This document shows, in pieces, positions 6,564 to 35,926 of a DNA stretch of 64,000 nucleotides (position 1 is the first letter of the stretch; the number at the start of each line of letters is the position of its first letter). Origin of the DNA: an uncultured Pelagibacteraceae bacterium (GTDB lineage: Bacteria; Pseudomonadota; Alphaproteobacteria; Pelagibacterales; AG-422-B15); assembly GCA_902546615.1 (NCBI GenBank), contig CACCKE010000003.1, positions 17,837 to 81,836 on the forward strand, read 5' to 3'. The position numbers and the translations under genes were made by a program. Under the pieces are notes generated by a model that was not told where the DNA came from, searched no databases, and saw only the letters and a program-made list of their open reading frames with translations.

Positions 6564-6588
6564 CTATTAAGCCCCTATCGCTTAATAG
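6564..6588. terminator. hairpin between convergent operons (possible bidirectional terminator)
   Basis: CTATTAAGC-ccctatc-GCTTAATAG, a perfect 9-bp stem. No clear T-run on either side. Confidence 0.35.
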
Positions 6589-6644
6589 TAAAGCAGGTCA
6601 TTGGTAATGATCAGCCGCTGGAGCGTAACCAGCTAGGGGCACCA

Positions 6645-10091: not shown

Positions 10092-10807
10092 AACGTTGCT
10101 GTCCCACTCATGCCTGGCAGTAATGTATCATAATTTTCATCAAATTTTGCAGTAATGTCGATGGTTTGGCTAACAGGATCAATATCAACGCCGATAGTAT
10201 GAATTTTAGCATTATATGTTTGCCCATTTTCATCAATGCTGATTTTCATTGGATAACCCTCATCGATCCAAGCCAGCCATTTACTTGAAACAATCAATTT
10301 GGCCTCAAGAATGCCAGAACCAATGATTTCGACCAATGGCTGCTGCCTTTCAATACTCTCAAACTCATTGACAAAAACTTTAGATACTTTGCCATCGTAA
10401 GGGGCTTTAATTATACATCGATCTGTATTGAGTTTGGCAATTTGTAATTCAGCTTCTGCACGCTTTACATCGATTTCTGATAACTGAACCTCATATTCAC
10501 CAATGGATCTCATCAAGGCAAGGTCTTGATTGCTCTTTAGAGTTACTCTTGCGCTCTCTAATTGTGCTTCAACAACTTTTCTTTGTTCTTCATAAAATGA
10601 ACAATCAAATTTAATTAAAATATCAAACTCTTTAAATTTAGATCCTTCATCAATTGGTATTGATTCAACTTTTGCAGCAAGTTCACTTGAGAGTGTTGCC
10701 TCTTCGGTTGCAGTTACTAAAACACGTGTGGAATATTCTTCTGCCAACAAATTATAAGGCAATAATATGCAGCACGCTGTTACCGCAAATGTTACAATTT
10801 TGTTCAT
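10088..10807 (-). CDS. periplasmic adaptor (HlyD/RND-MFP-like), signal-peptide form
   Basis: 239 aa with a signal peptide. Lipoyl-hairpin halves (AAKVESIPIDEGSKFKEFDILIKFD ... IIKAPYDGKVSKVFVNEFESIERQQPLVEI) flank a coiled coil. ATGA overlap with the downstream gene. Confidence 0.65.
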   Translation of the reverse strand: MNKIVTFAVTACCILLPYNLLAEEYSTRVLVTATEEATLSSELAAKVESIPIDEGSKFKEFDILIKFDCSFYEEQRKVVEAQLESARVTLKSNQDLALMRSIGEYEVQLSEIDVKRAEAELQIAKLNTDRCIIKAPYDGKVSKVFVNEFESIERQQPLVEIIGSGILEAKLIVSSKWLAWIDEGYPMKISIDENGQTYNAKIHTIGVDIDPVSQTIDITAKFDENYDTLLPGMSGTATF

Positions 10808-10818
10808 AAAGGTATTTA

Positions 10819-17859: not shown

Positions 17860-18019
17860 GTTAATTTATATAAATAAAATTTAGTAATTTATTGATAAAT
17901 ATACCTTTTCTATATACAGCAGAAATGTTACCAGATGTAGCAGGATCGAAAAAAAAACCCAAAATGGGCGGTTATGTGTATACTGAAATTATTAAAGTTT
18001 GGTATTACTTGCGCCTGAT

Positions 18020-18038
18020 ACTGTAAGTCGATTACAGT
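18020..18038. promoter_or_regulatory. inverted repeat in divergent control region
   Basis: ACTGTAA-gtcga-TTACAGT, 30 bp upstream of the TolC-like ATG. Confidence 0.2.
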
Positions 18039-18067
18039 GTATCTGATATTTTTAAAAAACATTTTTA

Positions 18068-20869
18068 ATGGTCTACCTTATAAAAAAATTATTAATAGTT
18101 TTCATATGTTTGGCGCTCGTTGCTTGTGCGCGATCTCCAAGAATAATTGATGCAGAGTCATTAAGCGTTTCTATTGCTGAAGAGATTGCCGAACTTGAAG
18201 TTAAAGCATCATTTCAAAATATTGACTTACATACTGCAATCGCAATTGCTGTCAGAAACAATCGTGATTTAAGGTTAAGCGTTATGGAATCTGCTCTATC
18301 ACAGAGTCAAAGAGACTTGCAAAAATTTGATATGCTTCCTGACATAGCACTCAGCGCTGGTTATTCTGAGTTTACGGAACTTCAGCCTTCTACAAGTAAA
18401 ACAGTTGCATCAGATGACAGTGTTGCACCGTCAATTGATGGAACAGAAGGCTACACTATTTCTAGGGATAAAGGTCAGGCGACAAGGGGTATTGAATTTA
18501 CTTGGAATGCACTAGACTTTGGACTTTCATACATTAGGGCAGGACAACAGGCGGATAGATATTTAATTGCGAAGGAACTTGAGAGAAAGGCTATTCAAAA
18601 TATTACTAGAGATATTATCAGGTCATACTGGAAAGCCCAAGCATCAGAAAATCTCCTTAAAAAACTTAATCCGCTCCTTAAGAGAGTTGAAGACGCATTA
18701 GCAGACTCTCAATACATTGAAGAACTTTTAATTTCGGCCCCGATGGATTCTTTACTTTATCAAAAAGAATTACTTGATGTACAGCGAACACTTCAAACAC
18801 AACAACGCGCTCTCATAAATTCAAAAAACGAGTTAGCATCATTAATGGGTCTGCTTCCTAGTGAAAAGTTTACGCTCGCTGAGAATGATACATATTTAAC
18901 AAACCTTAATATGGATATTCAAGCTATGGAGGAAATAGCACTTCTTTCAAGACCTGAACTTATGGAGAGTCGATATCAAAAAAGAATTACAAGTAAAGAT
19001 ACAAGGGCGGCCATGTTAGCACTTATACCAAGCTTAAAATTTAATGCAGCATATGGGTACACAAATAATGATTACTTATTAAATCAAGATACAACAGAGT
19101 ATGGAGCATCAATCGGTGGTAATCTATTTGATATATTCTCAATAGGAGTGACAAGAAAAGCTACGAAAGCAAATCAAGAGCTTATTGCCGAAAGACATCT
19201 TGCTATAGCCATGACAGTGCTCTCTCAGGTTCACTTGTCGAATATAAACTATGACCTAGCTATTGAGGAATATGATACAGCGCAAAGATATTTAGATGTC
19301 GCTAAAAGAATAAGTAAACAAGTCCAAAATGCACAGAAAGTCTCAAGATTTGGTGAGCTAGAAGTTATCAGAGAAGAAGCAAGTCTTTTAGTTGCAGAGC
19401 TTAGAAAAGATTTAGCCTTCTCAGAAATGCAGCACAGCATTGGTCAAATATATGCATCAATTGGTAAAGACATTTTACCTGCAGATCATCAAAATCTATC
19501 AATTCAGGACTTAAGTAATAGCATAAAAGCCAATTTAGTTGAGTGGGGCGTAACTTATCAAGCAGCGGTTAATATTCCTTTGAATGATCAAAACCCACAA
19601 CTGCTAGTGATCACAGACCCAATTAATACAAAACAATCAAGCAACAAATTTAAGATATCTAAAGATACATTTAATATCTCTGGTCCAGGTAAATTAAGAT
19701 ACTCGGTAACACAAGAAGACGGCAGTGACTTGCCTCGATGGCTTGCATTCCTAACTTCGGACTTATCGATAGTTGGTAACCCGCCCGAAAATGTATCAGG
19801 CATAAAACTAAAGATCTCAGTTGCTAATGCTTTGGTTTCAGCGGAAGATCAATTTATTCTGAACTTTGTTGATGAGGAAACATTCTTAGCAAATGAAAGT
19901 CAAAAGGCAAGAGAAGAACTTGCGCGTATGACGAGGTTAAGTAATGAGGATGAAATTTTAACGGATGAAGAAGTAGAGGTAGCTTCAGTTGAAACTGTTG
20001 TAGACGAAGATCAAATTGAAGCAGAAGTAACTACATCTGAGCCAATTGAGGCAGAATATGAATTCAGCAATGTATCAGCTGAGGAACTAAATGAACTTCT
20101 AGACTCGGTTGATGAGTTGCTTGAGGGGTCGCTAAAAGAACTAAATAACGAAGCAGACTCATTGCAATTTAATAATCAGATTTTTGATGAAAGTGTCAAT
20201 GCCAATAGCGATGAGGAAGTCGTAACTGAAGATGTAACAACTGCTGATACAGGTGAAGAAAATAACATTCTGCCAACCAAAAAAATTATTCAAGAAAACG
20301 AAAAGCTTCAAGCTAACAATGAGCAACTTCTCTCTGAGGCGGATGAAGCAAAAGAAGAATTAGCTCAATTGATTGAAGAAAATAAACAAAAAGAGTTAGA
20401 AGAAAAAGCTGCTCAAGAAGCACTTGAAGAAAAGTTAGCTAAAGAGGCTGAAGAAGCTTTAGAAAATTTAAATGAACTTGTCGATACAAGTATTGATACT
20501 GAAACTAATTCTTTCAGTGCTCAAGCAAGTGAAGTGCCAGCTGAAACTGACAATGATCTTTCAGAAAGTTCATCAAATGCAGAGTATGCTTATATTAAGA
20601 TCGGGTCATATACACGAGGAAACTCGGCGAATAGCTTGATGAATTACATATACGATTTAATGGGCTTTGATACTCGTTTCCTCAAATATGATATTAATGT
20701 TGAAAAATTTGATAAAAATGACTTCTCAGTAGTGATCGGCCCAGTTCCTATGGTTGAGGCTAAATCGATGTTAGAAGAACTTGATACTCAATTAAGTTCA
20801 GAGAATAGCTCAATTGTTGACGCTGAGCTTACTTGTAATGAAGAAGTCATTCTAATGTGTTCAATTTAA
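18068..20869 (+). CDS. TolC-family outer-membrane lipoprotein with ~450-aa C-terminal extension (cadherin-like module, acidic coiled-coil region, SPOR-like domain)
   Basis: Lipobox LALVAC. OEP-type start LHTAIAIAVRNNRDLRL..FDMLPDIALSAGYS and two coiled-coil repeats run to about aa 480. These are followed by LPRWLAFLTSDLSIVGNPPENVSG, an E/D-rich region and a C-terminal SPOR-like fold. Confidence 0.8.
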   Translation: MVYLIKKLLIVFICLALVACARSPRIIDAESLSVSIAEEIAELEVKASFQNIDLHTAIAIAVRNNRDLRLSVMESALSQSQRDLQKFDMLPDIALSAGYSEFTELQPSTSKTVASDDSVAPSIDGTEGYTISRDKGQATRGIEFTWNALDFGLSYIRAGQQADRYLIAKELERKAIQNITRDIIRSYWKAQASENLLKKLNPLLKRVEDALADSQYIEELLISAPMDSLLYQKELLDVQRTLQTQQRALINSKNELASLMGLLPSEKFTLAENDTYLTNLNMDIQAMEEIALLSRPELMESRYQKRITSKDTRAAMLALIPSLKFNAAYGYTNNDYLLNQDTTEYGASIGGNLFDIFSIGVTRKATKANQELIAERHLAIAMTVLSQVHLSNINYDLAIEEYDTAQRYLDVAKRISKQVQNAQKVSRFGELEVIREEASLLVAELRKDLAFSEMQHSIGQIYASIGKDILPADHQNLSIQDLSNSIKANLVEWGVTYQAAVNIPLNDQNPQLLVITDPINTKQSSNKFKISKDTFNISGPGKLRYSVTQEDGSDLPRWLAFLTSDLSIVGNPPENVSGIKLKISVANALVSAEDQFILNFVDEETFLANESQKAREELARMTRLSNEDEILTDEEVEVASVETVVDEDQIEAEVTTSEPIEAEYEFSNVSAEELNELLDSVDELLEGSLKELNNEADSLQFNNQIFDESVNANSDEEVVTEDVTTADTGEENNILPTKKIIQENEKLQANNEQLLSEADEAKEELAQLIEENKQKELEEKAAQEALEEKLAKEAEEALENLNELVDTSIDTETNSFSAQASEVPAETDNDLSESSSNAEYAYIKIGSYTRGNSANSLMNYIYDLMGFDTRFLKYDINVEKFDKNDFSVVIGPVPMVEAKSMLEELDTQLSSENSSIVDAELTCNEEVILMCSI
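20578..20830 (+). other. SPOR-like peptidoglycan-binding domain at the TolC C-terminus
   Basis: YAYIKIGSYTRGNSANSLMNYIYDLMG...DFSVVIGPVPMVEAKSMLEEL follows the SPOR pattern (y.vQ.Gaf....A..l...l......yrV.vGPf....A). Confidence 0.5.
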
Positions 20870-23939: not shown

Positions 23940-24057
23940 ATTTTTTTATATTAGTATCCAATCACAATATAATATTTTCTTTGATAATTTAAAGATCAAC
24001 AACGAATGAACCATGTTTAAATTGTCGCAGTTTTCTGATTAAAAAAGAAAAAATTGG

Positions 24058-24390
24058 TTAAATATTGGAATTTATTTGTTTGCAGATACTTCTATTTTGC
24101 CAAACTTTCTTATCTATATAATTTTCAAAACCTCTAATATTTTTAGAAATCAACAGCACGAGATTTAAAACATATTCAGCTAATGAAATAGAAGTATAGT
24201 CTCTGAGATTGCAAGGAGAGATGTTATGTTTTCTGCAGTAATCTAAGTCTATTATATTTGTTGCAGTTGCAGTAATAGCAATTAACTCTCATTCTTTTGC
24301 AGATAATAAGTTATGCTTATGTTACTTAATTTTAATAATAATAATTATGTTTGTTTTTTTATTCTTTCTTAAATTTGATACTTTTTTCAG
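24058..24390 (-). pseudogene. decayed, 3'-truncated relic of a D-isomer-specific 2-hydroxyacid dehydrogenase
   Basis: The minus-strand frame reads LKKVSNLRKNKKTNIIIIIKIK*HKHNLLSAKE*ELIAITATATNIIDLDYCRKHNISPCNLRDYTSISLAEYVLNLVLLISKNIRGFENYIDKKVWQNRSICKQINSNI*. This aligns with the substrate-binding domain pattern ..ADIVITNKV..LKLI..AATGTNNVDL..GI.VCNVRGYST.SVAEH..AL.LAL.R.L......V..G.WQ. In-frame stops lie at 24322..24324 and 24289..24291. The NAD-binding GxGxxG part is missing. Confidence 0.65.
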
Positions 24391-24515
24391 GTGTATTCAA
24401 AATTGAGATTTGGTAAAAAGATGTTTGGCGGGAAGATTGAGCTATTAAGAAAAACTATATTTATACCATTATTCTGTAAATTACGGTATTATGTATCCTA
24501 TCTTCTTATAATATA

Positions 24516-24535
24516 CTTAGATATATCCATCTAAG
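24516..24535. promoter_or_regulatory. inverted repeat upstream of the exported-protease operon
   Basis: CTTAGAT-atatcc-ATCTAAG, 38 bp upstream of ATG 24573. Confidence 0.2.
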
Positions 24536-24572
24536 TTATTTACATCAAATACATTTTGGTTAATATTTTAGT

Positions 24573-25283
24573 ATGTTCCGAAAGAAAATTTCTAAATTTA
24601 TTGTTTGTACATTTTTATTAATTCTTCTTTCTACTATTACAAGCAAGGCGGCATTGTTTGGTGGGTGTGATCAAAAATTTATGGATAATCAGAATGATGT
24701 ATTTTATCTAAAAATTCAGCTACAGAGAGATCTTGCTAGTAATATGCCATGGGTTGCAACAGCTTTAAAAGGTGGCTTTGAAGAATGTAGGAAGTTTTTT
24801 CGTGCAGACGAAAGGCTAGTAATTAAAGAAATGGAAGGTGGAGGTGCAGGATGGTCAAGTTATTCAGACCTAGCTAAGACAAATATTTCTAAATCTGAGT
24901 TTTGCAGTTGGGACGGGCCCTTTTCAAAATATGGGTTAGGAGAAGCAGCTCTAAGATATTGTGATGTTGGTAAAAGTTTTCTAGCAAATAAAAGTAAATA
25001 CGAAATATGTAAAAGTGCATTAAATGAAAATAATAATGACTGGGTTACAACAAATGATTATGCAGGTGATGATGCAAGTATGTATGTCCAGGAAGCTCTC
25101 ATTAGAGGGCTAAATGTTAATGAATGTATGCAAGTAATCGTAAAAAAAGAAGGAGCCATAAAAAAGTCTTCTTCGGTTTCCATTGAAAGAAAACTAGACC
25201 AATTAAAGAATCTTCTAGATGAGGGTTTAATTTCTCAACGTCAATATAATGAAAAAACAGACGAAATATTAAGCAACTTTTAA
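24573..25283 (+). CDS. exported protein with C-terminal SHOCT-like tail
   Basis: Signal peptide (FIVCTFLLILLSTITSKAA). The C-terminus KLDQLKNLLDEGLISQRQYNEKTDEILSNF matches the SHOCT pattern. Contains a Cys-bracketed motif shared with the next protein. Confidence 0.6.
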   Translation: MFRKKISKFIVCTFLLILLSTITSKAALFGGCDQKFMDNQNDVFYLKIQLQRDLASNMPWVATALKGGFEECRKFFRADERLVIKEMEGGGAGWSSYSDLAKTNISKSEFCSWDGPFSKYGLGEAALRYCDVGKSFLANKSKYEICKSALNENNNDWVTTNDYAGDDASMYVQEALIRGLNVNECMQVIVKKEGAIKKSSSVSIERKLDQLKNLLDEGLISQRQYNEKTDEILSNF

Positions 25284-25338
25284 AGACAATAGATTGTATA
25301 TTAAATTAAAAATACAAAATATTTACCGATTATATTTG

Positions 25339-27624
25339 ATGAAAAATTTTTTTCTTAATATTTTAATTTTCTCATTTTTAATATTTTCAACTAATGTCTA
25401 TGCTACGGCTTTAATAAAAGGAAAAGATGTATCTGGCACAATTTATAATTTGTATCAACAAGGTATAAATTTAACTTTACCTGATGGTAAATGGGAAGTT
25501 ACAAGAAGTCAAAAGGACGATAATTATCAAGATATCGAACTTTATTCGGATGATTATGATACATGGGCATATATTTATGCACCACTTTCGCCAGTAAGTG
25601 GTGACTTCTGGAGAGGCGGAGGGCTATCTAAGTGTAAGGGTAAAGATGTTTTTTTATCCTTAGTTGAAAGATCTCATCCAGAAGCAACATTATGTTTTGA
25701 AGATCAATATATTGATGGATCTAAATGGGGTGTTGCAACATTTAATGTTAGAAGCGCTAGAGTGCCGCTAAAATGGATGACCATGTCATTCTATATCCCT
25801 GCTGACAAGTTAAAAACATCTATTTCAGAATCCCAATTTAATAAAATTGGTAAAAGAGTCTTGAGCGCAATACGCAATGGTTTTAATGGGGGGGACTCAT
25901 CTGGTATGCGTGCTATATCCGATTTAGTTGTTACAAGCTTTTCAGAAAGCTATGCAGATGCAGATGGTGAAAGTGATAATAATACTTACATTTCTAGTTC
26001 ATCTTTCGAAAATAAAAATAATGATGATACAATTATTGGTATAAGCGATTTTACTAAATTCTGCACAATTCTTGATTTTGAATGTGATAATTCTTTTGAA
26101 GAAGATTATAAAGAATACATTAACGCTAAAGATTATAAAGCTTGGGCAGTAACTCAAAAGGGAAATACATTTAATAATCCAGCATGGGGATATTATGTCA
26201 GAGCTGATAATCTCGCAGAAGCAAAATCAGAAGCCATAGATGCATGTAACGAGTACAAATATGCTAGTGAAACTTGCTCAATTGTTTTAGAAGGCAATAG
26301 AATTGTAAATGACACATTATTAGCAAAGTTTGACGAGAGAAATTTAAACATTTACGCGAACTCTGACAATTTAACAGTATGTTTAAGAGCAACAACATCT
26401 GACGGAATGAACTGGGAGGATATTAATGGTAAATATGGAAGCGCTGTTCAAGAAGCTTGGAATCGTAATCTTGACTTAAAAAGCTGCCGAGCAATAACAA
26501 AACGTTTTCCAAAAAGCCAAGAGAAAAAACCTCAAGAGCAAGAAAAAGTTATAGTAGAACTCAACAAAGACAATAAAGAACCAAAAATAATTATCGATAA
26601 TGAAATAAATGTAGAAAGTGCAAGATATTCTATTACTGGAAGTGTAGAAGATGAGAGCAAAGTTTACGTCTGTGTATTTGAAAATTGCCAATTAGCAGAA
26701 GATGGTAATTTTAAAATTAATCGCTTCAATCCAGGTGGTGAAGTGCTTAAAATTACAGCTCAAGATGAATTTGGAAATTTCTCATCTAAATCAATTACCG
26801 TTAAAGTATCAAAAAATAATGATCAGAAAAAATCTTATGCACAATTAAACCCAGAAAAAATAAAAAATTCAAAAAACAGCGACAGAGTGGCTTTATTAAT
26901 TGGAATAGAAAATTATAAATTTTCCTCCGATGCAAGTTATGCTAATCGTGATGCTTTATTCTTTTCTGAGTACCTTCAAGAAATGGGTATAAGACAAGAT
27001 AAAATAAAAATATTAAAAGATACTGATGCAGGATTGATTAGCATATATGCTGCACTGGAAAAATGGTTACCTGCACAAATTAGGTCTGGCTCAACCGAAG
27101 TGTTTTTGTTTTTTGCTGGTCATGGTCTAGCCTCAAATAACGGCCAGGATTTGTTTTTATTAGCACACGATACCGATACTGACATGTTAAATAGATCAAG
27201 TATTTCCCGAACTGAAATATTTGAGCTAATCAATAAACATAGTCCAAGCCATACTTTTGTGTTTCTAGACACATGTTATAGTGGCGCTAGCAGACAAGGT
27301 GATATGCTTCTTGCTTCTGCAAGAGGTCTTGTAACAGTTACTGATAAACAAAGCTCAATACCTCCAAATTTTACAATTTTTTCTGCTGCGCAAGGAAACC
27401 AAATAGCTTCTGGCCTTGACGAAGTGCAACATGGTCTTTTTAGCTATTTTACTATGAGGGGGTTAGAAGGGGATGCAGATTCTGACGGTAACAAAAAAAT
27501 TTCGACGCTTGAATTGGCTAGGTATGTAGAGGAAAAGGTCAGAGAGAATGCAGTTAAAATGGGAAGAGAACAAATACCTATGATGCATGGAGATAAGGAT
27601 ATAATAATAAGCAATATAAAATAA
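25339..27624 (+). CDS. exported multidomain protein with C-terminal caspase-like (peptidase C14) domain
   Basis: The ATG at 25339 gives a signal peptide (MKNFFLNILIFSFLIFSTNVYA); the track start 25294 is a TTG extension. The middle has a DUF4189-like segment (YKAWAVTQKG..AWGYYVRADNLAEAKSEAIDACN). The C-terminal 246 aa are caspase-like. Confidence 0.8.
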   Translation: MKNFFLNILIFSFLIFSTNVYATALIKGKDVSGTIYNLYQQGINLTLPDGKWEVTRSQKDDNYQDIELYSDDYDTWAYIYAPLSPVSGDFWRGGGLSKCKGKDVFLSLVERSHPEATLCFEDQYIDGSKWGVATFNVRSARVPLKWMTMSFYIPADKLKTSISESQFNKIGKRVLSAIRNGFNGGDSSGMRAISDLVVTSFSESYADADGESDNNTYISSSSFENKNNDDTIIGISDFTKFCTILDFECDNSFEEDYKEYINAKDYKAWAVTQKGNTFNNPAWGYYVRADNLAEAKSEAIDACNEYKYASETCSIVLEGNRIVNDTLLAKFDERNLNIYANSDNLTVCLRATTSDGMNWEDINGKYGSAVQEAWNRNLDLKSCRAITKRFPKSQEKKPQEQEKVIVELNKDNKEPKIIIDNEINVESARYSITGSVEDESKVYVCVFENCQLAEDGNFKINRFNPGGEVLKITAQDEFGNFSSKSITVKVSKNNDQKKSYAQLNPEKIKNSKNSDRVALLIGIENYKFSSDASYANRDALFFSEYLQEMGIRQDKIKILKDTDAGLISIYAALEKWLPAQIRSGSTEVFLFFAGHGLASNNGQDLFLLAHDTDTDMLNRSSISRTEIFELINKHSPSHTFVFLDTCYSGASRQGDMLLASARGLVTVTDKQSSIPPNFTIFSAAQGNQIASGLDEVQHGLFSYFTMRGLEGDADSDGNKKISTLELARYVEEKVRENAVKMGREQIPMMHGDKDIIISNIK
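26884..27621 (+). other. caspase-like (C14) catalytic domain
   Basis: RVALLIGIENY..., His in FFAGHG (CAT 27121..27123) and Cys in LDTCYSG (TGT 27274..27276). Tail reads GLFSYFTMRGLEGDADSDGNKKISTLELARYV. Confidence 0.75.
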
Positions 27625-29132
27625 TGAGTAAATACGTAGCGATTATATTAATAAATTTTTTCTTTATCTCTTTAAGTCATGCAGATGAATTTAAAAATGT
27701 AGAGCAGTATATAAGTGTTAATAAATACTCATTGGCACTTCAAACACTAAAAAAAATATCTCCTCAAAATAAAGAGGAAGTTGCAAGACAATCTTATCTA
27801 ATTGGCGAAATTTATTTTGCTCTGGGAAATGTGACTAAAGCGGAGGATTTCTTTTCGGATGCAAATATGAAAAGTCCAATGAATGGAACATATGGATCGG
27901 CTTACGCAAAAGCAATGATGGCGCTTGGAAAATTTAATGAAGCAAAGGAATTAGCAACTCGCATATTGGAAGAAGATTTCAATGTAATTGAATCACACAT
28001 CGTACTAGCCACAATTGATGAGCGTTTAGGTAATTTAAATAAAGCTAAAAATAGATTTGAAGAACTTATTAGACTTCAACCTCAAAGTGAGATTATGCAT
28101 GTAGCATACGCCGAATTTCTAGATGTTAGAGTTAATTCTTACGACGCTATAAACCTGTTAAAGAAGTACATAAAAAGATATCCCGAAAGTCCTAAAGCTC
28201 TTGATTATCTCGGAAACACTTATGCTTACCTAGATGATATTGAAAATGCAATTATTTATAGATCTAAAGCGGCAGAATTATATGAACTTCGTGGTCAACA
28301 AATTTATTCAAATTCAATTAATGAGTGGCTGAGTGAATATGAAAAGAAAACTAAAGCTATTGAAGAAGATAATAAGAATGAAATTGTTGAGGAGGAAATT
28401 GTTGAGGAGGAAATTGTAACTCAAACTCAAAAACCTGCTCTGAAATATCAAGATCCAAATCTAATAGACCCTTGGCCAATAAAAAGTGGAGAATACGCTT
28501 ATACTGGGAGTGGTTTTATTACAAGCAAAGGTGGTGAGATAATCACTAATCGACATGTTATTGAAGGGGCTAAAAGACTTTATGTTCGAAATGGACTTGG
28601 TGAGTTAAGAGCGGCAGAAATATTAAAGCTTTCAGAAACAGATGATATTGCATTGCTAAAATTAGATGAACCTTTTAACTCAGAATTTTCAATTGAAATT
28701 CCAATAAATTATCCCGCTAAGCCAGGTCAAGAAGCATTTGTAATCGGTTACCCGTTGGCTGACATTTTAGGAGAAAATAAGCCTTCAATCACCCAGGGAA
28801 TAATTAGTAAAAGCACGGGGATGTATGATGATCCTAATACATTTCAAATTACTGCAAAGCTCAATCAGGGAAATAGTGGGGGTCCAATTTTTACAAGAGA
28901 AGGAAATATTCTTGGTATTGCAGTTGCAAAAATTGATAAAACGCTAATGCTTCAAGAAGAAGGAATGATACCTGAAGATGTTAACTTTGGAATACCGTCA
29001 AATAGAATAGAAGCACTTACAGGAAAGGCATCAGAAAAAATTTATTCTCAAGATTTAGATCTTGAAGTTCTTTACGAGTCTGTGCTTCCAAGCGTTGTCA
29101 TGATATTAAATGTTGTAAATGTACAAGAATAA
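27624..29132 (+). CDS. exported TPR-repeat protein fused to trypsin-like serine protease (S1/Trypsin_2-type)
   Basis: Signal peptide. Several TPR-like repeats lie in aa 30-240. The protease triad context is TNRHVIEGA, DDIALLKLD and GNSGGPIF. TAATG junction with the upstream gene. Confidence 0.8.
   Translation: MSKYVAIILINFFFISLSHADEFKNVEQYISVNKYSLALQTLKKISPQNKEEVARQSYLIGEIYFALGNVTKAEDFFSDANMKSPMNGTYGSAYAKAMMALGKFNEAKELATRILEEDFNVIESHIVLATIDERLGNLNKAKNRFEELIRLQPQSEIMHVAYAEFLDVRVNSYDAINLLKKYIKRYPESPKALDYLGNTYAYLDDIENAIIYRSKAAELYELRGQQIYSNSINEWLSEYEKKTKAIEEDNKNEIVEEEIVEEEIVTQTQKPALKYQDPNLIDPWPIKSGEYAYTGSGFITSKGGEIITNRHVIEGAKRLYVRNGLGELRAAEILKLSETDDIALLKLDEPFNSEFSIEIPINYPAKPGQEAFVIGYPLADILGENKPSITQGIISKSTGMYDDPNTFQITAKLNQGNSGGPIFTREGNILGIAVAKIDKTLMLQEEGMIPEDVNFGIPSNRIEALTGKASEKIYSQDLDLEVLYESVLPSVVMILNVVNVQE
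28380..28418 (+). repeat. 15-bp in-frame tandem repeat (EIVEE x2.6) in TPR-protease linker
   Basis: gaaattgttgaggag occurs twice, followed by gaaattgta. Confidence 0.9.
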
Positions 29133-29964
29133 ATTATTTACATTAATTTTTATATTTTTATTAAATTTTCAATATGTTTCTGCAGAAATAATTTCTGAGA
29201 GAGGTGAGTATGTACTATCTAGAGATATATCTGAAAAGACTTGTTTTGAAAACGCAAAGCAAAGAGCATTAAATAATGCAGCAACTGTTCTTACCGGGGA
29301 AAAACTAAAATCAGAAACAATAAAAATATGCGAAGCTAGTTTTGAAAATAAGGCTCAATGTGAACTGTACCAAAGTTCATGGAGCGTAATTGACTCAGTA
29401 ACTAGAAAGGGATCAATTAAAATCATTGATGAAAAAAAAGTTGATAAAAATCTTTATATTAATTGTGAGGTTACCATTGAGGTTGATTTATATAGAACTC
29501 CAAAGCCAGAACCAAATTTTGATTTTGAATTGGATTTAAATCAGTCAAAATTTTTAGCCGGTTATGAATGGTCTGCTGAAGATATTCCTTTATTAGTTAA
29601 TATAAATCCTTATTCCAATAAAGAAATGTTTATAAATATTTTTCATTGGTCTCCATATATTGAGGGAAAAAATGTAGCTCGCATATTTCCTAACCCTCAA
29701 AAAGAAAAATATGATGGTGAAATAAACTTGATTAAAAAGAGTACTTTATTACCAAGGCAAAATAGCGGTTATTCATGGAAACATTTTTTTCCTAAAGGTC
29801 ATTACACAGATAGTATTTCTCAGGGAATACTGGTCTTTGCTTCAAAAGACAATATTCAATTTTCTGAATTGTATACATATGAAAAATTCCAAGAAAAACT
29901 TCTAGAAGTTTCAGGTAATGATTCTAGAACAAAAAAAGCAATTTATGTTGTTATCGAAAAATAA
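29119..29964 (+). CDS. exported protein, DUF4384-like (tentative)
   Basis: Signal peptide (LFTLIFIFLLNFQYVSA). The C-terminal half (FINIFHWSPYIEGKNVARIFPNP...) resembles DUF4384, a frequent partner of bacterial caspase-domain proteins. 14-nt overlap with the upstream gene. Confidence 0.5.
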   Translation: MYKNKLFTLIFIFLLNFQYVSAEIISERGEYVLSRDISEKTCFENAKQRALNNAATVLTGEKLKSETIKICEASFENKAQCELYQSSWSVIDSVTRKGSIKIIDEKKVDKNLYINCEVTIEVDLYRTPKPEPNFDFELDLNQSKFLAGYEWSAEDIPLLVNINPYSNKEMFINIFHWSPYIEGKNVARIFPNPQKEKYDGEINLIKKSTLLPRQNSGYSWKHFFPKGHYTDSISQGILVFASKDNIQFSELYTYEKFQEKLLEVSGNDSRTKKAIYVVIEK

Positions 29965-31327
29965 ATTTATTCTATTTTTATTAGTTATTCTTTTTGGATG
30001 CACTACTAATAATCAAAACAGTTCTATTGGAAAAATTGAAAAAGCTAAATTACCATTTATTAATTCACCACCAAATTATTTAGTTTATAAGGATTTCAAT
30101 AAAGATACTCCTAACTGCATTATTGTGTTGCCATTTGAAATAGAAAATAAAGATAGAATAAATATAAAAAACATAAATTTAGAAGATATGCTTAGATTGA
30201 CAACTTACGCGCATCTTTCTCCACTGCAATATCGAGATATAGAAATTAGTAAGGTAGATTATTTTTTTGATTTAGATAGCGACATAGAGAGCCTATCATC
30301 AAATTTAAATTGTGAGTATTTTATGAAAGGTAAAATTATAAGATTTACTGAGACGGATTTAAAAATCTACTCCAATATTTCTGTAGAGGTAAAATTAGAA
30401 TTATTTAAAAAAAAGAACATACTATGGCATGGTAATCACCGGATTGATACTCACGGTGGCAATATACCTCTTTCACCAATAGGTCTAGCATTTGGCTTGG
30501 CTGATGCTGCAAGAAACTTAGATTCTTCACAGTATGTCAGAGTATCTGATGAACTAATTAGAGAATTGATTGCTACTCTTCCAGATAATGAAAAATTACA
30601 ATTTGCTTATTCTATAGAAGAGGAAACTTCCCAAGCTTTAATAGAATCAAATTTTAAATTAAAAGAGAGGAACTTGGTTAAAAATAATGAAAATTATAGC
30701 GATAAAACATTGGATGAGTTAATAACCCTATCTAATGATGAGATCTTATTTGAAGAGAAGATAAAGGTATTTGATGAAATCTTAATTCGCAAACCAAATG
30801 ATGTATCACTAAATAATGCTTATACTCAATTTCTCTTTGATAATAAAAAATATAGATTAGCTCAAGAAAAAATAGATATTCAAATTATTAATGATTTGTA
30901 TAACAAGCAAACTTATTTTCTAAAAGGAAGGTTACATCTAACCCTCAATGAGTTAGAACTTGCAGAGCAATCTTTTATAAAAGCTATAGCGATAGATAAG
31001 AAAGATGCCTTATCTCTGAATGCATTAGGATATGTTTATTCTATAAACAATAAAATATATAAAGCTGAGGCAGCCTACAAAATGGCCATTTCAATAGATA
31101 GTGAAAACATTTTTTCTCATTTAAATCTAGGAATCTTGAAATCTAATCAAGGCGAATATCAAGATGCCCTTATTTTACTTGAAAATGCGGCTATGTTTTC
31201 AATCAGCCAAAATGATTATAAAAGATATTTGATGACAATAAGTAAGATTGAGTCATTGAAAATCTATAAAATTGAGGTAGCATCAGTATTGGAAAAATTA
31301 GAAGAACTAAATACCTGGGGGTCGTAA
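29918..31327 (+). CDS. lipoprotein with C-terminal TPR repeats (N-domain possibly DUF799/LpoB-like)
   Basis: Lipobox LVILFGC; an alternative start at 29945 (MLLSKNKF) is plausible. TPR signatures lie in aa 290-440 (ALSLNALGYVYSINNKIYKAEAAYKMAISID, and others). Confidence 0.65.
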   Translation: MILEQKKQFMLLSKNKFILFLLVILFGCTTNNQNSSIGKIEKAKLPFINSPPNYLVYKDFNKDTPNCIIVLPFEIENKDRINIKNINLEDMLRLTTYAHLSPLQYRDIEISKVDYFFDLDSDIESLSSNLNCEYFMKGKIIRFTETDLKIYSNISVEVKLELFKKKNILWHGNHRIDTHGGNIPLSPIGLAFGLADAARNLDSSQYVRVSDELIRELIATLPDNEKLQFAYSIEEETSQALIESNFKLKERNLVKNNENYSDKTLDELITLSNDEILFEEKIKVFDEILIRKPNDVSLNNAYTQFLFDNKKYRLAQEKIDIQIINDLYNKQTYFLKGRLHLTLNELELAEQSFIKAIAIDKKDALSLNALGYVYSINNKIYKAEAAYKMAISIDSENIFSHLNLGILKSNQGEYQDALILLENAAMFSISQNDYKRYLMTISKIESLKIYKIEVASVLEKLEELNTWGS

Positions 31328-31332
31328 ACAAT

Positions 31333-31941
31333 ATGAATAAAAAAATTTCAGTAATCTTGGGCTTTCTTTTCTTTTTGGCTGCATGTGCAAGTCCATCAGG
31401 GCCCGAACTAATTGCACAGAATATACAGGAAAAAGAAGAGCAGAAAACAGAGCAGATTAAAACTAATGTAGATAATGTTCCAAAATGGTATTTAGCTCCA
31501 CCTGATGGAAAGGGAGTGGTCGGTTATTTTGTTGGACAGGGTGAATCAGCCTCTATTCAAGTTGCAAAAGATATTGCTGTTCAAGAAGCGAAAGAAGATA
31601 TGGCAAGCGCGATAGACTCACGTTTAAGTCAGACAATAAAGAAGTTTGTTGATCAAGGTGGAATTACAGCAGATGCTTCTCTCATGGGAAAGTTTTCTAC
31701 AGTTTCAAAAGAGGTAACAGCTGAAACTCAAGTTGCTGGTTGGTCATTGAAAGAAGGAGATGTTCAGTCTACTAATGACGGCTATATTTTTTATGCATTA
31801 ATTGAATATGTATACGGTGAAGCAAATATATTACTTCAACAAAAAATTAAACAAGATCAAGAAATGTTAACTGCAGTTAAAGCAACGGAGGCTTTTGCTG
31901 AACTTGAAGAAGAAATTAAAAAAGCTCAGGAAGCAAATTAA
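31333..31941 (+). CDS. LPP20-like lipoprotein
   Basis: Lipobox FLAACAS. VPKWYLAPP...GYFVGQGESASIQVAKDIAVQEAKEDMASAI follows the LPP20 family pattern. Confidence 0.55.
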   Translation: MNKKISVILGFLFFLAACASPSGPELIAQNIQEKEEQKTEQIKTNVDNVPKWYLAPPDGKGVVGYFVGQGESASIQVAKDIAVQEAKEDMASAIDSRLSQTIKKFVDQGGITADASLMGKFSTVSKEVTAETQVAGWSLKEGDVQSTNDGYIFYALIEYVYGEANILLQQKIKQDQEMLTAVKATEAFAELEEEIKKAQEAN

Positions 31942-32386
31942 ATTATTTTTATTTTTTTGTCTAAGTGGTGTATTTTTAAGTAATACTGTTACTGCAGATG
32001 AATTCTGGCTTTTAACAGAAACTGAATATGCCCTACTAGACATTGAAAATTCATTTGATGAAAAACTGAATTATTCACTTAGCGCCGGTCCAAAAATAAG
32101 TTTAATTTCCCCTAATGTTATTGAGAAGGTAAATGCGCCTGTCAATATTTTTATAAAATTTGAAAATAGCCCAGAAGGAAATGAGCCAGATATGGATACA
32201 CTAATTGTAAAAATGAAAGGGCTAATTACGTTAGATATTACAAAGAGACTGGAAAAATATATTGAGGGATATGAATTAAATATTCAGAATGCCCAGATCC
32301 CGAAGGGAAAGCATAAAATATTAATTATGATCATGGATATTAATAATAATTATTCAGAAAAATTAATCACATTTACCGTTAGCTAA
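31895..32386 (+). CDS. exported hypothetical protein (probable Ig-like beta-sandwich)
   Basis: TTG start inside the upstream gene's end. Signal peptide LFLFFCLSGVFLSNTVTA. No family recognised. Confidence 0.5.
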   Translation: MLNLKKKLKKLRKQIKLFLFFCLSGVFLSNTVTADEFWLLTETEYALLDIENSFDEKLNYSLSAGPKISLISPNVIEKVNAPVNIFIKFENSPEGNEPDMDTLIVKMKGLITLDITKRLEKYIEGYELNIQNAQIPKGKHKILIMIMDINNNYSEKLITFTVS

Positions 32387-32388
32387 AA

Positions 32389-32646
32389 ATGAGAATTTTT
32401 ACTACACAACTTTATAATAGTAGAATTCCAAGCGCCAACATAGGATCAGAACCTCTTAAGTATCACCCTGATAGTATTCAACAATCAAAAGGATATATAC
32501 CATTGCAAAGATCACGTGAATTAATTACTAATTACTTTGCTTACTCCGTTAGCAATGGAGGAACTTGTGGATGGTTTGATAAGGAAGCAGGTCTAAACAC
32601 AGTAATGAATTTTTCACTCGGTGAATGCATTAAACCTCCTTGGTAA
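32389..32646 (+). CDS. small hypothetical protein (85 aa), last gene of the operon
   Basis: Starts 2 nt after the upstream stop. No signal peptide, two Cys residues, no family recognised. Confidence 0.4.
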   Translation: MRIFTTQLYNSRIPSANIGSEPLKYHPDSIQQSKGYIPLQRSRELITNYFAYSVSNGGTCGWFDKEAGLNTVMNFSLGECIKPPW

Positions 32647-32681: not shown

Positions 32682-33653
32682 ATGAATTATAGAATTGATA
32701 ATCTTCAATATTGCAATTGGAATGAAGAGATATTTAAGATTAATAGAAAGGCAAAATTAGACGCCGTTCACGTTACGATTGCATATCATGAAGACTACGA
32801 TGAGGTTCAAAACAATATTAATGAATGGAACACTTATTTTAAAAAATTCAATGAATTAATATTTCACGGCAGGTCATATAAAGATATTGAGAAAGCTAAT
32901 GAAGAGAATAAGACTGCTGTTTTCTTTGGTTTTCAAAACTGCTCGCCTATAGAGGATAATATAAATTTGGTTGAAGCTGTTCACAAAATGGGAACGGTAT
33001 TTATGCAATTAACTTACAATAATCAATCTTTACTGGCTACAGGATGCTACGAAGAAAATGATAGTGGCGTAACAAGAATGGGGAAAGAAGTTATAAAAGA
33101 AATGAATCGTGTAGGAATTATAGTAGACATGTCTCACTCAGCAGAAAAATCTACAATAGATGCGATCGATATTTCAGAAAAACCAATTGCTATCACACAC
33201 GCTAATCCTTCTTTTTGGCACCAAGCAAAAAGAAATAAATCTGAAACAATACTCAAAGAACTAGGCCAATCAAATGGGATGATTGGTCTGTCACTTTATC
33301 CACATCACTTGTTAAATGGTACCAATTGTTCTCTTGAAAGCTTTTGTGAAATGGTTGCCCGCACTGCAGACATTATGGGAGCAGAGCATATTGGTATTGG
33401 ATCTGATTTATGCTTAAACCAACCTGACTCAGTGGTAGATTGGATGCGAAACGGAACTTGGACTAAGACAAAAGATTATGGTGAAGGCTCAAAAGATAAT
33501 GCAGCTTTTCCAAAACAACCAGAATGGTTCAAAAACGCCACTGGCTTTGACAATATTGAGAGTGGATTAAAAAGAGTGGGGTTTAACGAAAATGAGACAA
33601 ATGGAATCTTAGGCAATAATTGGTTTAATTTTTATAAGAATTATATTGGTTAA
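32682..33653 (+). CDS. membrane (renal-type) dipeptidase, peptidase M19 family
   Basis: Family blocks HVTIAYHE, FMQLTYNNQS, GIIVDMSHSAEKS, IAITHANP and IGIGSDL. Confidence 0.85.
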   Translation: MNYRIDNLQYCNWNEEIFKINRKAKLDAVHVTIAYHEDYDEVQNNINEWNTYFKKFNELIFHGRSYKDIEKANEENKTAVFFGFQNCSPIEDNINLVEAVHKMGTVFMQLTYNNQSLLATGCYEENDSGVTRMGKEVIKEMNRVGIIVDMSHSAEKSTIDAIDISEKPIAITHANPSFWHQAKRNKSETILKELGQSNGMIGLSLYPHHLLNGTNCSLESFCEMVARTADIMGAEHIGIGSDLCLNQPDSVVDWMRNGTWTKTKDYGEGSKDNAAFPKQPEWFKNATGFDNIESGLKRVGFNENETNGILGNNWFNFYKNYIG

Positions 33654-33656
33654 TAT

Positions 33657-35312
33657 ATGACAATAAAAGTTCAGCACAGAGATCCAAACAAAATCATGAA
33701 ACTTAGTCGATTAGGTTGTTTCCATCAATCCAAGCTTTCATTTTTAAGAAGTTTTATAAGAGAGTTCAAGGGTTGGAAGTTTAAAAATGAGATCTTTGAC
33801 CTTGATAAAGAAGGGTACGGAACTGCCGTGTATTCTGTTTCAAATAAAGAACGCACATACTCTCTTGTATGCTTTGCAAACAAAATAGATGACACTGAAA
33901 GATCTGATCGAGTGATAGCTACTAAATGGGATGCAGCATTCGTTATTCATGATGGACTTCCTAGTAAAGATGATATTGAAAGGCTTCGTGAAAATGTCCC
34001 AAAACAAGAAGTAGGAAGATGTTCATTTAAGGAACTTGCTTTATCAAGAGCAAATCGATCCGTAAGGGTTTTTAACCATGTAATTGATAGCCTATCAAAT
34101 GGAATTCAACCTGATAAAAAACTACTTTCTGAAGTAGGTTACTTATATAGAACCACTGCGGTTTATGGATCAGGTAAATTTGGATTAGCAGATCGATATA
34201 GAATTAAAGATCGCCCTGAAATAAACGGTCCATTTAGAATTGAAATGATGCTTGTTTATTTGGTTCGTCAGTTTACGTTTGATCAAGTCAATCACATTGC
34301 TCATAAAAAGAATCCAAATCAATCTGTTAAACTAGATCTTGAACTATCCAGACAACTCGGTATTGGCAATTCAACTGGCCTTGGTATGGCTCCCTTTATT
34401 ATCAACCACCCAGCTCTACTACACCAATGGATATACGTTAGAGAGGAAGCTTTGAGGCAGATTAGAGAAATTAAAAATGTATCAAATGATGATTTTGAAA
34501 TGTTTAAAAAATTCTTAGAACTTTCAAAGAAAAATATAAATAATTGGAATACTAATAGTGAATTTCAAAATATTAAAATTGCTCAATTGAAAGAAGATAT
34601 TCAAAAATTTGAGGAAAATTGTCTCTGTAATATTAAGGTTAAGAAAGAATATTTTTGGGATGAGTTGTATAAATGGGTAGAAGAAAATTTAACTCATGAG
34701 GGCGTAGAATATATTGTTTCTCTCATGATGGAACCGTACGATAACATTATTGGTCTACTAGTGCCTCAAATGAGCTCTGATGAAGATAAATATTTTGATA
34801 TACCAGCAAATCGAACTACCGATGAATTAAAATCATCAATAGAAAAATCTTATCCAAATATAATTAAAATGGACTTCTCAATTGATCAAAGTAATGAAAA
34901 TTTTTGGTATATTTCAAAAAATAAGGAAGAACCAAGATTGGCAAGTCGCTTTGATGAGCCAGGAGCAGAATTAGAGCAACCTCTTGCAATTGCAAGAGAT
35001 ATTAAAGAACTTTATGCAAGATTATCATCTTATAAAAATGAAAAATTATCTAAATTTTTACATGAAAATAACGACCTAAGACATGTTGTTAGAAGGTGCC
35101 ACATTGTCGAAAAGTTGCCTTATGCAGAAATCCAGGACAATTCTATCGGTTCAGAGTTGATGCCTATTGATATGCTAAGACTAAAACTATCTTTTTTTGG
35201 AGCCCAAAAATTTGATCCTCGATCAAACAAGTGGTTGAGAATTTGCATGTACCAAGGAGCACCATTGATGCATGAAATAAAAAAATCAAATGACACGTGG
35301 ATTTACAATTAA
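33657..35312 (+). CDS. conserved-looking hypothetical protein (551 aa), function unknown
   Basis: Long ORF starting 3 nt after the dipeptidase stop. No TM helix, signal peptide or catalytic motif that I can assign. Confidence 0.6.
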   Translation: MTIKVQHRDPNKIMKLSRLGCFHQSKLSFLRSFIREFKGWKFKNEIFDLDKEGYGTAVYSVSNKERTYSLVCFANKIDDTERSDRVIATKWDAAFVIHDGLPSKDDIERLRENVPKQEVGRCSFKELALSRANRSVRVFNHVIDSLSNGIQPDKKLLSEVGYLYRTTAVYGSGKFGLADRYRIKDRPEINGPFRIEMMLVYLVRQFTFDQVNHIAHKKNPNQSVKLDLELSRQLGIGNSTGLGMAPFIINHPALLHQWIYVREEALRQIREIKNVSNDDFEMFKKFLELSKKNINNWNTNSEFQNIKIAQLKEDIQKFEENCLCNIKVKKEYFWDELYKWVEENLTHEGVEYIVSLMMEPYDNIIGLLVPQMSSDEDKYFDIPANRTTDELKSSIEKSYPNIIKMDFSIDQSNENFWYISKNKEEPRLASRFDEPGAELEQPLAIARDIKELYARLSSYKNEKLSKFLHENNDLRHVVRRCHIVEKLPYAEIQDNSIGSELMPIDMLRLKLSFFGAQKFDPRSNKWLRICMYQGAPLMHEIKKSNDTWIYN

Positions 35313-35926
35313 TGCAATCATCAAGTGAAATTAATACTGTATCAAAGAGAGCTGCAAGAGCAGCTGGTTATTCGTGGGGAGTCGCAGAAGAAGTTGGAAA
35401 ATGTATTAGTTCAATTGAGATGTTCGGAATTCCTGGAGTGGAAAATCTGAATAATTATTTTAAAAACATTAAAGATATTGAACCAGAGGGTCCAAAACAA
35501 ATAGAAAAAAATAATAAACTGAATGATAAAAGTCTCTGCCCTATTTATACAGGACTAAAATTGATTGATGATTATAAATCTGTAGATAAAATAAAAAAAT
35601 TAAAATTCATAAAACTAGATTACCCTTTGTTGCTCTTACCTTTCATTAATAAACTTTCATATTTAATTGGTAAGAGAATTCAAGTTTCTATTGATAATTT
35701 TAATACTGAATGCAATTTAAACACATGTATCCTTGCTGATCATAAAATTAAATCCTTAATAATTAAAAAAGCTAATACAGTGACAATAACTATTTTAGAA
35801 AATGAAGATAATTTCTCTAGCAAAACTTGGAATGAGTTATACGAAATATCAACTAAGACATTTGTTGAAGAAACAGAGCAATCAAAACAAACTGGAGCTG
35901 GTGCAGGGCTTCAGGATAACGATTAA
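35297..35926 (+). CDS. DUF3726-like protein
   Basis: SKRAARAAGYSWGVAEEVGKCISSIEMFGIPG resembles the DUF3726 N-terminal block. An alternative ATG at 35312 forms a TAATG junction with the upstream stop. Confidence 0.55.
   Translation: MDLQLMQSSSEINTVSKRAARAAGYSWGVAEEVGKCISSIEMFGIPGVENLNNYFKNIKDIEPEGPKQIEKNNKLNDKSLCPIYTGLKLIDDYKSVDKIKKLKFIKLDYPLLLLPFINKLSYLIGKRIQVSIDNFNTECNLNTCILADHKIKSLIIKKANTVTITILENEDNFSSKTWNELYEISTKTFVEETEQSKQTGAGAGLQDND

Follow-up and report, generated by a model that had tools for sequence, protein, structure and literature searches.

A cluster of genes coding for exported proteases and putative envelope scaffold proteins was analysed in a 64,000-nucleotide stretch of DNA (the window, taken at its full length) from an uncultured Pelagibacteraceae bacterium (GenBank assembly GCA_902546615.1, contig CACCKE010000003.1, positions 17,837 to 81,836 of the forward strand). 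Between positions 24573 and 32646 the window carries eight + strand open reading frames (ORFs), g1 to g8, which the original prediction, made by a model from the letters alone, had described as an operon pairing an orthocaspase with a trypsin-like protease. We report that the conserved unit, as delimited by synteny, is six genes (g2-g7) and not eight: a caspase gene (g2), a gene for a tetratricopeptide repeat (TPR)-trypsin protein (g3) and four genes (g4-g7) whose products appear to be lipoprotein, TPR or Ig-like scaffold proteins, the family calls being made by transitive homology. The domain families are known, and the six-gene exported-protease cluster that they form is apparently undescribed. 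Our preferred interpretation, to which we assign a probability of about 0.45, is that g2-g7 encode a periplasmic protease assembly tethered to the outer membrane, a proposal made at the level of architecture.

Conservation of the cluster

The g2-g7 order is retained, at 43-83% identity, in a metagenome contig (L003) whose caspase is 67% identical to that of the window. Twenty further marine metagenome loci were retrieved with a g6 profile, and the g3-g4-g5-g6-g7 order is kept in all of those lying on sufficiently long contigs. A g4 sub-alignment query retrieved 27 loci from species-representative genomes in a pattern-limited scan, a first genome scan with g6 patterns having found no relative. 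Nearly all of these genome loci belong to the Rhodospirillales (Alphaproteobacteria), from Thalassospiraceae and Magnetovibrio to Phaeospirillum and Magnetospirillum metagenome-assembled genomes (MAGs); cultured carriers are Terasakiella brassicae CGMCC 1.15254, Rhodospirillaceae bacterium LM-1 and Paramagnetospirillum caucaseum SO-1, the last with three separate loci (L047, L052 and L057), each with its own caspase gene or genes. The g4 family as a whole comprises 113 representative clusters in an exhaustive HMMER search, and no g4 relative was found on plasmids or in GenBank phages.

Profiles built from our own alignments and searched across the 27 genome loci detected g3 in 25, g5 in 24, g6 in 25 and g7 in 10, and the core order is kept in most of them. 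The commonest junction at g3/g4, g4/g5 and g5/g6 in these loci is a 4-nt overlap. A caspase gene is present in 21 of the 27; the other six loci are short pieces or lie at contig ends, and two of them (L054 and L055) have one long flank devoid of any caspase gene. In L045 and L050 g4 is directly followed by g6, and these two genes look like a separable minimal module. Clustering of the flanking ORFs in the 27 loci yielded no further conserved family and no NTPase. With its order repeated in 47 further loci, the gene arrangement is far beyond chance. The set g3-g4-g5-g6(-g7) plus at least one caspase gene is conserved and appears to be translationally coupled. The expectation of a functional unit shared between genomes is upheld by the 47 loci, although for g2-g7 rather than for all eight genes. 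Marine lineages resembling alphaproteobacteria carry this unit, as do Rhodospirillales. The eight ORFs of the window are as follows.

g1, 24573..25283, + strand: 236-aa predicted exported protein, lineage-specific accessory lying outside the conserved cluster (ORF, signal peptide).
g2, 25339..27624, + strand: 761-aa predicted exported orthocaspase (PF00656, His/Cys dyad).
g3, 27624..29132, + strand: 502-aa predicted exported TPR-trypsin protein, S1C/HtrA-type, no PDZ (Trypsin_2 and TPR models).
g4, 29119..29964, + strand: 281-aa predicted exported protein of the DUF4384 family (homologue matches, AF2 model).
g5, 29945..31327, + strand: putative lipoprotein, GNA1162/DUF799/PelC-like plus TPR (lipobox, TPR matches, homologue matches).
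g6, 31333..31941, + strand: 202-aa putative lipoprotein, LPP20-like, with a conserved C-terminal helix (lipobox, homologue matches).
g7, 31895..32386, + strand: 163-aa predicted exported protein, TTG start, possibly Ig-like (alignment of homologues).
g8, 32389..32646, + strand: 85-aa probable remnant of a 206-232 aa exported protein (partial alignment to an intact homologue).

All eight co-directional ORFs are present with the coordinates, overlaps and gaps that had been announced for them. A 55-nt spacer separates g1 from g2, for which the ATG at 25339 is backed by the L003 orthologue; g2 and g3 share one base (TAATG at 27624), and g3 and g4 overlap by 14 nt. The g4/g5 overlap measures 20 nt when g5 starts at ATG 29945 and 47 nt when it starts at ATG 29918, the latter start giving a 469-aa product. 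A 5-nt gap follows g5; the first 47 nt of g7, counted from its TTG start at 31895, lie within g6, this start being backed by an N-terminus conserved in the homologues; and 2 nt separate g7 from g8. Gene spacing is the sole ground on which the cluster is taken as a putative operon: promoter and terminator scans gave nothing above the shuffled background. With a GC content of 0.28-0.35 against 0.33-0.42 in its flanks, the cluster is slightly AT-richer than its surroundings. The 633-nt stretch located 5' of g1 (23940-24572) is AT-rich and non-coding, and promoter-like matches are no commoner in it than in shuffled sequence. Identical proteins are present in the marine assembly GCA_902586415.1 and in marine metagenomes.

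Seven of the eight products had been expected to start with a signal peptide or a lipobox, and this holds. The products of g1-g7 each have an N-terminal hydrophobic segment (mean Kyte-Doolittle value of 2.5-3.7 over 10 residues), with lipoboxes in g5 (LFGC, Cys19) and g6 (LAAC, Cys18); in g8 an export signal was not found.

Two exported proteases of different catalytic class

The window proteins were scanned directly with Pfam, NCBIfam and PADLOC-DB 2.0. The g2 product comprises a signal peptide, an N-terminal module (aa 17-345), an Ig-like domain (~aa 424-490) and a C14 caspase domain (aa 516-750), which matches PF00656 (Peptidase_C14) with 48.2 bits for a cut-off of 21.4. As had been predicted, its His/Cys pair is intact: His595 (nt 27121-27123) and Cys646 (nt 27274-27276) are invariant across 51 cluster-linked homologues. 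The caspase motif D-T-C-Y-S-G is metacaspase/orthocaspase-like, and a conserved D-x-D-x-D-G-like loop near the caspase C-terminus (aa 711-716) is a possible calcium site. The orthologues of g2 are 58-67% identical to it, and g2 itself gives weak Big_6 and Glucodextran_B matches in Pfam. Membership of the EACC1-associated type of caspases was rejected, the score with NCBIfam NF047832 being 66 bits and the cut-off 140.

The caspase, proposed as the partner of the TPR-trypsin protein, is linked to the core, but it is not a fixed single-copy gene: from one to eight caspase genes are found per locus, upstream or downstream of the core (eight in L042, five in L053), and their domains vary. In the marine loci, the caspase gene lies upstream in some and downstream in others, in up to three copies. 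Every cluster caspase copy carries a signal peptide or a lipobox. The additional domains of the cluster-linked caspases are Glucodextran_B Ig-like (17), Sel1 (10), TPR (~6) and FGE-sulfatase (3) and, more rarely, ankyrin (1), Trypsin_2 with PDZ (2) and Peptidase_S41 (1). The region L004:425-7931 holds a distant caspase homologue (26% identity) in another genomic setting, with two tandem Ig-caspase genes and then a CHASE2-guanylate cyclase gene.

The g3 product carries TPR repeats (~aa 25-225) followed by a protease domain (aa 295-432) that matches Trypsin_2 (E 1.1e-24); several TPR models match as well. Here too the announced catalytic residues are in place, the motifs around H311, D341 and S418 of the triad being conserved in 12 homologues. 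The DegP/HtrA models of NCBIfam match the protease domain only (TIGR02037, 84.8 bits for a cut-off of 416), and no PDZ match was found in the Pfam scan; with the PDZ missing and a score this far below the equivalog cut-off, the assignment of g3 as HtrA proper was rejected. Judged by the conserved residues and the predicted signals, both proteases are expected to be catalytically intact and exported.

Three arrangements connect the two protease classes: (i) in L046:9998-13156 and L049:9100-12318, which belong to Phaeospirillum and Magnetospirillum MAGs, single proteins of >1000 aa combine Trypsin_2, PDZ and caspase domains, and the fusion genes lie directly 3' of the g3-g6 core; (ii) one other cluster-linked caspase is fused to an S41 domain; and (iii) the first 330 residues of g2 have a counterpart, 45% identical, in a protein (P0006) that bears a trypsin and no caspase. 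These fusions and module swaps are the strongest evidence for the serine and cysteine proteases acting in one process, and because of them we favour such a common process. They also indicate that the N-terminal modules may be interchangeable targeting or sensing parts. Of the proteolytic cascade that had been suggested, the part stating that the two classes work together is supported by the fusions; that one protease activates the other is not shown by them.

The putative scaffold proteins

No significant match came out of the direct scans for g4, g6, g7 and g8 or for the g5 N-domain. The DUF4384, DUF799 and LPP20 assignments guessed from the sequence were recovered through homologues, although the window proteins themselves have no significant Pfam match to these families. 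DUF4384 (PF14326) is matched by 49 of 61 g4 homologues (best E 5.9e-12) and not by g4 itself; PF05643 (GNA1162-like, formerly DUF799) by 14 of 19 g5 homologues (best E 7.3e-8), the window g5 giving no match even at E up to 10; and LPP20 (PF02169) by 13 of 16 g6 homologues (best E 4.4e-6), the window g6 scoring 12.3 bits (E 0.24) for a cut-off of 25.9.

The g4 protein has an N-terminal alpha/beta domain with conserved cysteines, which is weakly Lpp20-like, and a C-terminal beta-sandwich. Both domains are seen in an AF2 model computed on the homologue alignment (pLDDT 88, pTM 0.79). A Foldseek comparison of this model with the PDB returned Helicobacter Lpp20 (5ok8) for the first domain, a weak match (probability 0.93, E 0.011), and weak matches to Ig-like folds for the second. 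In g5, a GNA1162/DUF799/PelC-like domain (~aa 35-215) precedes a TPR domain (~aa 280-430), the TPR being matched by Pfam in the window protein itself; with its LFGC lipobox, g5 is the putative TPR lipoprotein that had been announced. Among 177,635 PDB sequences, the profile of the g5 N-domain retrieved only GNA1162 (4hrv, E 0.02) and 5t10/5t11 (E ~1), all weak; the latter two chains bear the database label 'Uncharacterized protein', and we take them to be PelC. A word-indexed homologue search with this domain returned a single fragment only, and PDB sequence searches with shallow profiles returned TPR matches or noise only.

The most conserved gene of the cluster is g6, which is 83% identical to its L003 orthologue, the other cluster genes being 43-69% identical to theirs; it is also homologous to a 365-aa protein of L005 bearing a faint LPP20 match. 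A common LPP20 origin of g4 and g6 is unsupported, because their profile-profile comparison was not significant. For g7, neither a family match nor a PDB match was found, and faint Big-like matches only were obtained; its fold is possibly Ig-like. It is a facultative member, kept in the marine loci and in 10 of the 27 genome loci. In L005, the most divergent marine version of the cluster (L005:6357-7022, L005:8310-8996), an OmpA-like beta-barrel gene occupies the place of g7, and a DUF6134 gene and a second, LPP20-like gene (365 aa) stand among three caspase genes. An OmpA-like beta-barrel gene is found at the g7 position of L006 as well.

A possible protease assembly at the outer membrane

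In the assembly that we favour, g5, with its PelC/GNA1162-like domain and its TPR arms, and g6, which is LPP20-like, would anchor a platform on the periplasmic side of the outer membrane. During Pel export, PelC assembles into a dodecameric ring at the outer membrane; rings beneath this membrane are also formed by FlgP, an LPP20-family protein. The g4 protein (Lpp20-like domain and DUF4384 beta-sandwich) and g7 could serve as soluble adaptors. The TPR domain of g3 would dock the PDZ-less HtrA-type serine protease on the lipoprotein platform, and the proteases would be held in place jointly by TPR domains (g3, g5) and beta-sandwich domains (g4, g7). One or several orthocaspases could be recruited through the Ig-like domain, and their variable modules (the N-module in g2; Sel1, TPR, ankyrin or FGE-sulfatase elsewhere) would choose the substrate or ligand. 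Both protease classes would then act, possibly sequentially, in one pathway on envelope or surface proteins. By default, the role that we attach to this assembly would be the regulated processing of envelope or surface proteins, or their quality control.

Several points weigh against such an assembly. The contacts between the subunits of the platform are proposed by inference alone. A usable structural model was obtained for g4 only, that of g6 (13 sequences) being unusable with a pLDDT of 47. The family calls for g4, g5 and g6 are transitive, the window proteins lying below the Pfam thresholds. The g5 gene is missing in L040, L045 and L050, and g7 in most genome loci; because g5 or g7 is lost in some loci, the platform would not strictly depend on either. 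The sorting of lipoproteins to the outer rather than the inner membrane is assumed from E. coli rules. Finally, the residue before the cut is usually small and hydrophobic for HtrA-type proteases and is Arg or Lys in the self-processing of orthocaspases; because these known specificities differ, a cross-activating cascade is not implied.

Alternative interpretations

A second interpretation is that the cluster serves conflict or defence at the envelope: periplasmic caspases would sense phage, predator or toxin proteins through their repeat domains and, once activated, would together with the serine protease destroy the invader or the cell's own envelope in an abortive response. We consider this doubtful, although several features speak for it. 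The caspase genes are amplified, up to the eight of L042 and the five of L053, and carry diverse binding domains next to a constant protease; P. caucaseum SO-1 maintains its three separate loci; some Csx30 proteins, which the caspase-like Craspase takes as its substrate, carry DUF4384 at their C-terminus; and the window locus is slightly AT-richer and adjoins a giant adhesin island. Viral genes also bear on this interpretation. Three related IMG/VR viral contigs of 50-59 kb (L066-L068; e.g. L067:7965-9384) carry g4-like and g6-like genes only, which align over their whole length at 28-30% identity (E 5e-25 and 1e-22). Helicase/primase-like genes lie on one side of the pair and terminase genes on the other, no protease gene is present within 8 kb, and the viral large terminase is 47.5% identical to its counterpart in Roseobacter phage CRP-901. 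A decoy or inhibitor of the host system would be expected to look like this, and the phage pair may act as a decoy. Just as well, it may be a pair of superinfection-exclusion lipoproteins, and this is the more cautious view: among phage lipoprotein morons, superinfection exclusion is the commoner function, and it needs no link to a host protease.

Other observations argue against a conflict function. PADLOC gave no system-level match and returned only a generic caspase model (PDLC02987) and trypsin-domain models, without any match for g1 or g4-g8. No pore-former, nuclease, NTPase or toxin was found with Pfam on the window or by clustering of the flanks of the 27 loci, and mobility genes are lacking; the statement that the locus contains no NTPase, toxin-immunity pair or mobility gene thus stands. 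Moreover, the genome loci recovered in the pattern-limited scan are mostly from one order, the Rhodospirillales, which fits a housekeeping envelope function. A bolder and somewhat more doubtful version of the same idea is a periplasmic caspase surveillance system, in which orthocaspase receptor arrays on an outer-membrane lipoprotein platform, with a serine protease as their partner, would detect foreign proteins on entry into the envelope through diversified repeat domains, and the phage g4-g6 pairs would act as decoys of two platform subunits. If true, it would be an extracytoplasmic, NTPase-free counterpart of cytoplasmic caspase-type immunity.

An export or display function appears improbable. 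According to this interpretation, the PelC-like and LPP20-like lipoproteins would form an outer-membrane conduit or anchor site from which the proteases reach the cell surface or vesicles; there the proteases would digest external proteins or mature surface adhesins, in the manner of the clan-CD protease PorU at the type IX attachment complex. The apparent relationship of the g5 N-domain to PelC and GNA1162 and the OmpA-like beta-barrel gene at the g7 position in L005 and L006 are in line with it, as is the setting in the window, where an adhesin with HlyD/TolC-type export genes precedes the cluster and M19 dipeptidase and ABC-transporter genes follow it. However, conservation with the cluster extends to no outer-membrane beta-barrel and no secretin; other loci do not share the adhesin, dipeptidase and transporter neighbours, which even the close relative L013 lacks; and polysaccharide and type IX secretion system genes are lacking. 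The export reading is weakened because neither an outer-membrane channel nor the window neighbours are conserved. That the genes are chance neighbours or unreal ORFs is scarcely credible and is refuted by the synteny data: although the promoter and terminator scans stay at shuffled background and the operon is called from spacing only, the same families, order and overlaps recur in 47 further loci down to ~25% identity, with invariant catalytic residues.

Genes at the borders of the cluster

The two outermost ORFs, g1 and g8, differ from g2-g7 in their distribution. A SHOCT domain had been proposed for g1; the score with PF09851 is 19.1 bits, below the gathering cut-off of 27, and the domain was not retained. 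The g1 gene is found only in the near-identical relatives L001 and L013, and an unrelated gene occupies the same place in L003. The g8 product aligns only to residues 25-99 of an intact 232-aa homologue (L018:6233-6931, 63% identity) and lacks the signal peptide and the C-terminal half; no further remnants are present downstream. Because the alignment is limited to these residues and the signal peptide is missing, g8 is regarded as a remnant, probably a pseudogene fragment. A full-length 206-aa gene with a faint precomputed DUF4189 match stands in its place in L003. DUF4189 (PF13827), also among the families put forward initially, gave no match in any window protein at E up to 0.1, and a comparison of the g2 mid region with the full-length g8 homologues was not significant.

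Upstream of the cluster, a minus-strand gene (10819-17859) in the region 6645-20869 encodes a cadherin-like/Big_9 adhesin of 2346 aa, whose N-terminus is of the DUF4347 type. Three HlyD-type genes flank it, and one of these carries a Peptidase_M50 domain in fusion; next comes the gene for a TolC-like lipoprotein of 933 aa, which has a He_PIG domain and is extended by a long acidic stretch at its C-terminus. This region is likely a giant-adhesin export island that is not conserved with the protease cluster. At 6571-6641, a tRNA is detected by Rfam (50.9 bits) and not reported by ARAGORN; no rRNA was found in the window. On the 3' side of g8, co-directional genes at 32682-35926 encode an M19 membrane dipeptidase, a 551-aa protein without Pfam match and a DUF3726 protein. 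None of the three is found in the close relative L013, in which an aldehyde dehydrogenase gene comes directly after g7. In L013, which comes from a long-read assembly, many apparent frameshifts run across every cluster gene; these are most likely sequencing errors rather than decay.

Relation to known systems

The roles of bacterial caspase homologues are largely unclear, and work on them has dealt mainly with cytoplasmic, cell-death-type functions. The cluster provides a defined, conserved context for exported orthocaspases, comprising a fixed serine protease, two putative lipoproteins and two putative adaptors, and it gives context to three poorly understood envelope families, DUF4384, GNA1162/DUF799 and LPP20. 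As its carriers include the cultured and genetically approachable Terasakiella and Paramagnetospirillum, the substrates and the control of periplasmic caspases become directly testable. A possible interface between host and virus is suggested by the g4-g6 pair that phages carry. The locus had been said not to map to any described system, and we agree: PADLOC gave no system match, and searches of open-access full text combining the domain names found no description of the cluster.

The g5 N-domain probably belongs to the same lipoprotein fold family as PelC and the GNA1162 (DUF799) proteins of Neisseria clusters, and TPR arms are found in PelB as they are in g5. Unlike in the Pel and GNA1162 clusters, porin and polysaccharide synthesis genes are lacking, the PelC-like and TPR parts are fused in g5, and the partners are proteases. 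Pel export was rejected, since PelB porin, PelA and synthase genes are neither present in the window neighbourhood nor conserved in the related loci. The LPP20 lipoproteins (Helicobacter Lpp20, flagellar FlgP) are resembled by g6 and, weakly, by the N-domain of g4; in contrast to FlgP, the cluster is accompanied by no flagellar genes, and the window proteins stay below the Pfam threshold.

With Craspase (type III-E, TPR-CHAT Csx29 with Csx30) the cluster shares a caspase-fold protease, TPR and a possible DUF4384 partner. According to a preprint on type III-E CRISPR, fusions of DUF4384 to proteases are frequent, and some Csx30 proteins end in this domain. Craspase differs in being cytoplasmic, RNA-guided and of the CHAT rather than the C14 type, and no CRISPR genes are found at the cluster. 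The NTP-dependent conflict systems (PMC7159879) and the gasdermin-protease operons likewise combine caspase- or trypsin-like proteases with repeats and show paralogue expansion. However, they are cytoplasmic, and the cluster has no counterpart of their STAND, MoxR-vWA or GTPase switches or of a gasdermin; the description of the NTP-dependent systems by Kaur et al. (2020, eLife; PMC7159879) covers cytoplasmic systems only and no exported version. Assignment to the NTP-dependent systems was rejected, as there is no NTPase domain in the window genes and no further conserved family in the 27 loci.

The S1C trypsin fold, the intact triad and the periplasmic location predicted for g3 are shared with HtrA, DegP, DegQ and DegS, and, like the TPR-bearing outer-membrane protease BepA, g3 joins a protease to TPR. 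Unlike these proteins, g3 is devoid of PDZ, has its TPR at the N-terminus and is encoded with caspases and lipoprotein scaffolds.

The closest relatives of g2 are the orthocaspases and metacaspase-like C14 proteins (e.g. Microcystis MaOC1), with which it shares the C14 fold, the His-Cys dyad and the D-x-C-x-SG motif. In the parts consulted of a 2012 survey of prokaryotic caspases (PMC3501461), fusions to Sel1, TPR and FGE-sulfatase domains, multi-caspase operons in Alphaproteobacteria, N-terminal helices that are maybe signal peptides, and protease domains in 23 metacaspase operons are noted, and the six-gene cluster is not described in those parts. What sets the present caspases apart from other orthocaspases is that all copies are predicted to be exported and that they are encoded in a fixed cluster with TPR-trypsin, DUF4384, GNA1162-like and LPP20-like proteins.

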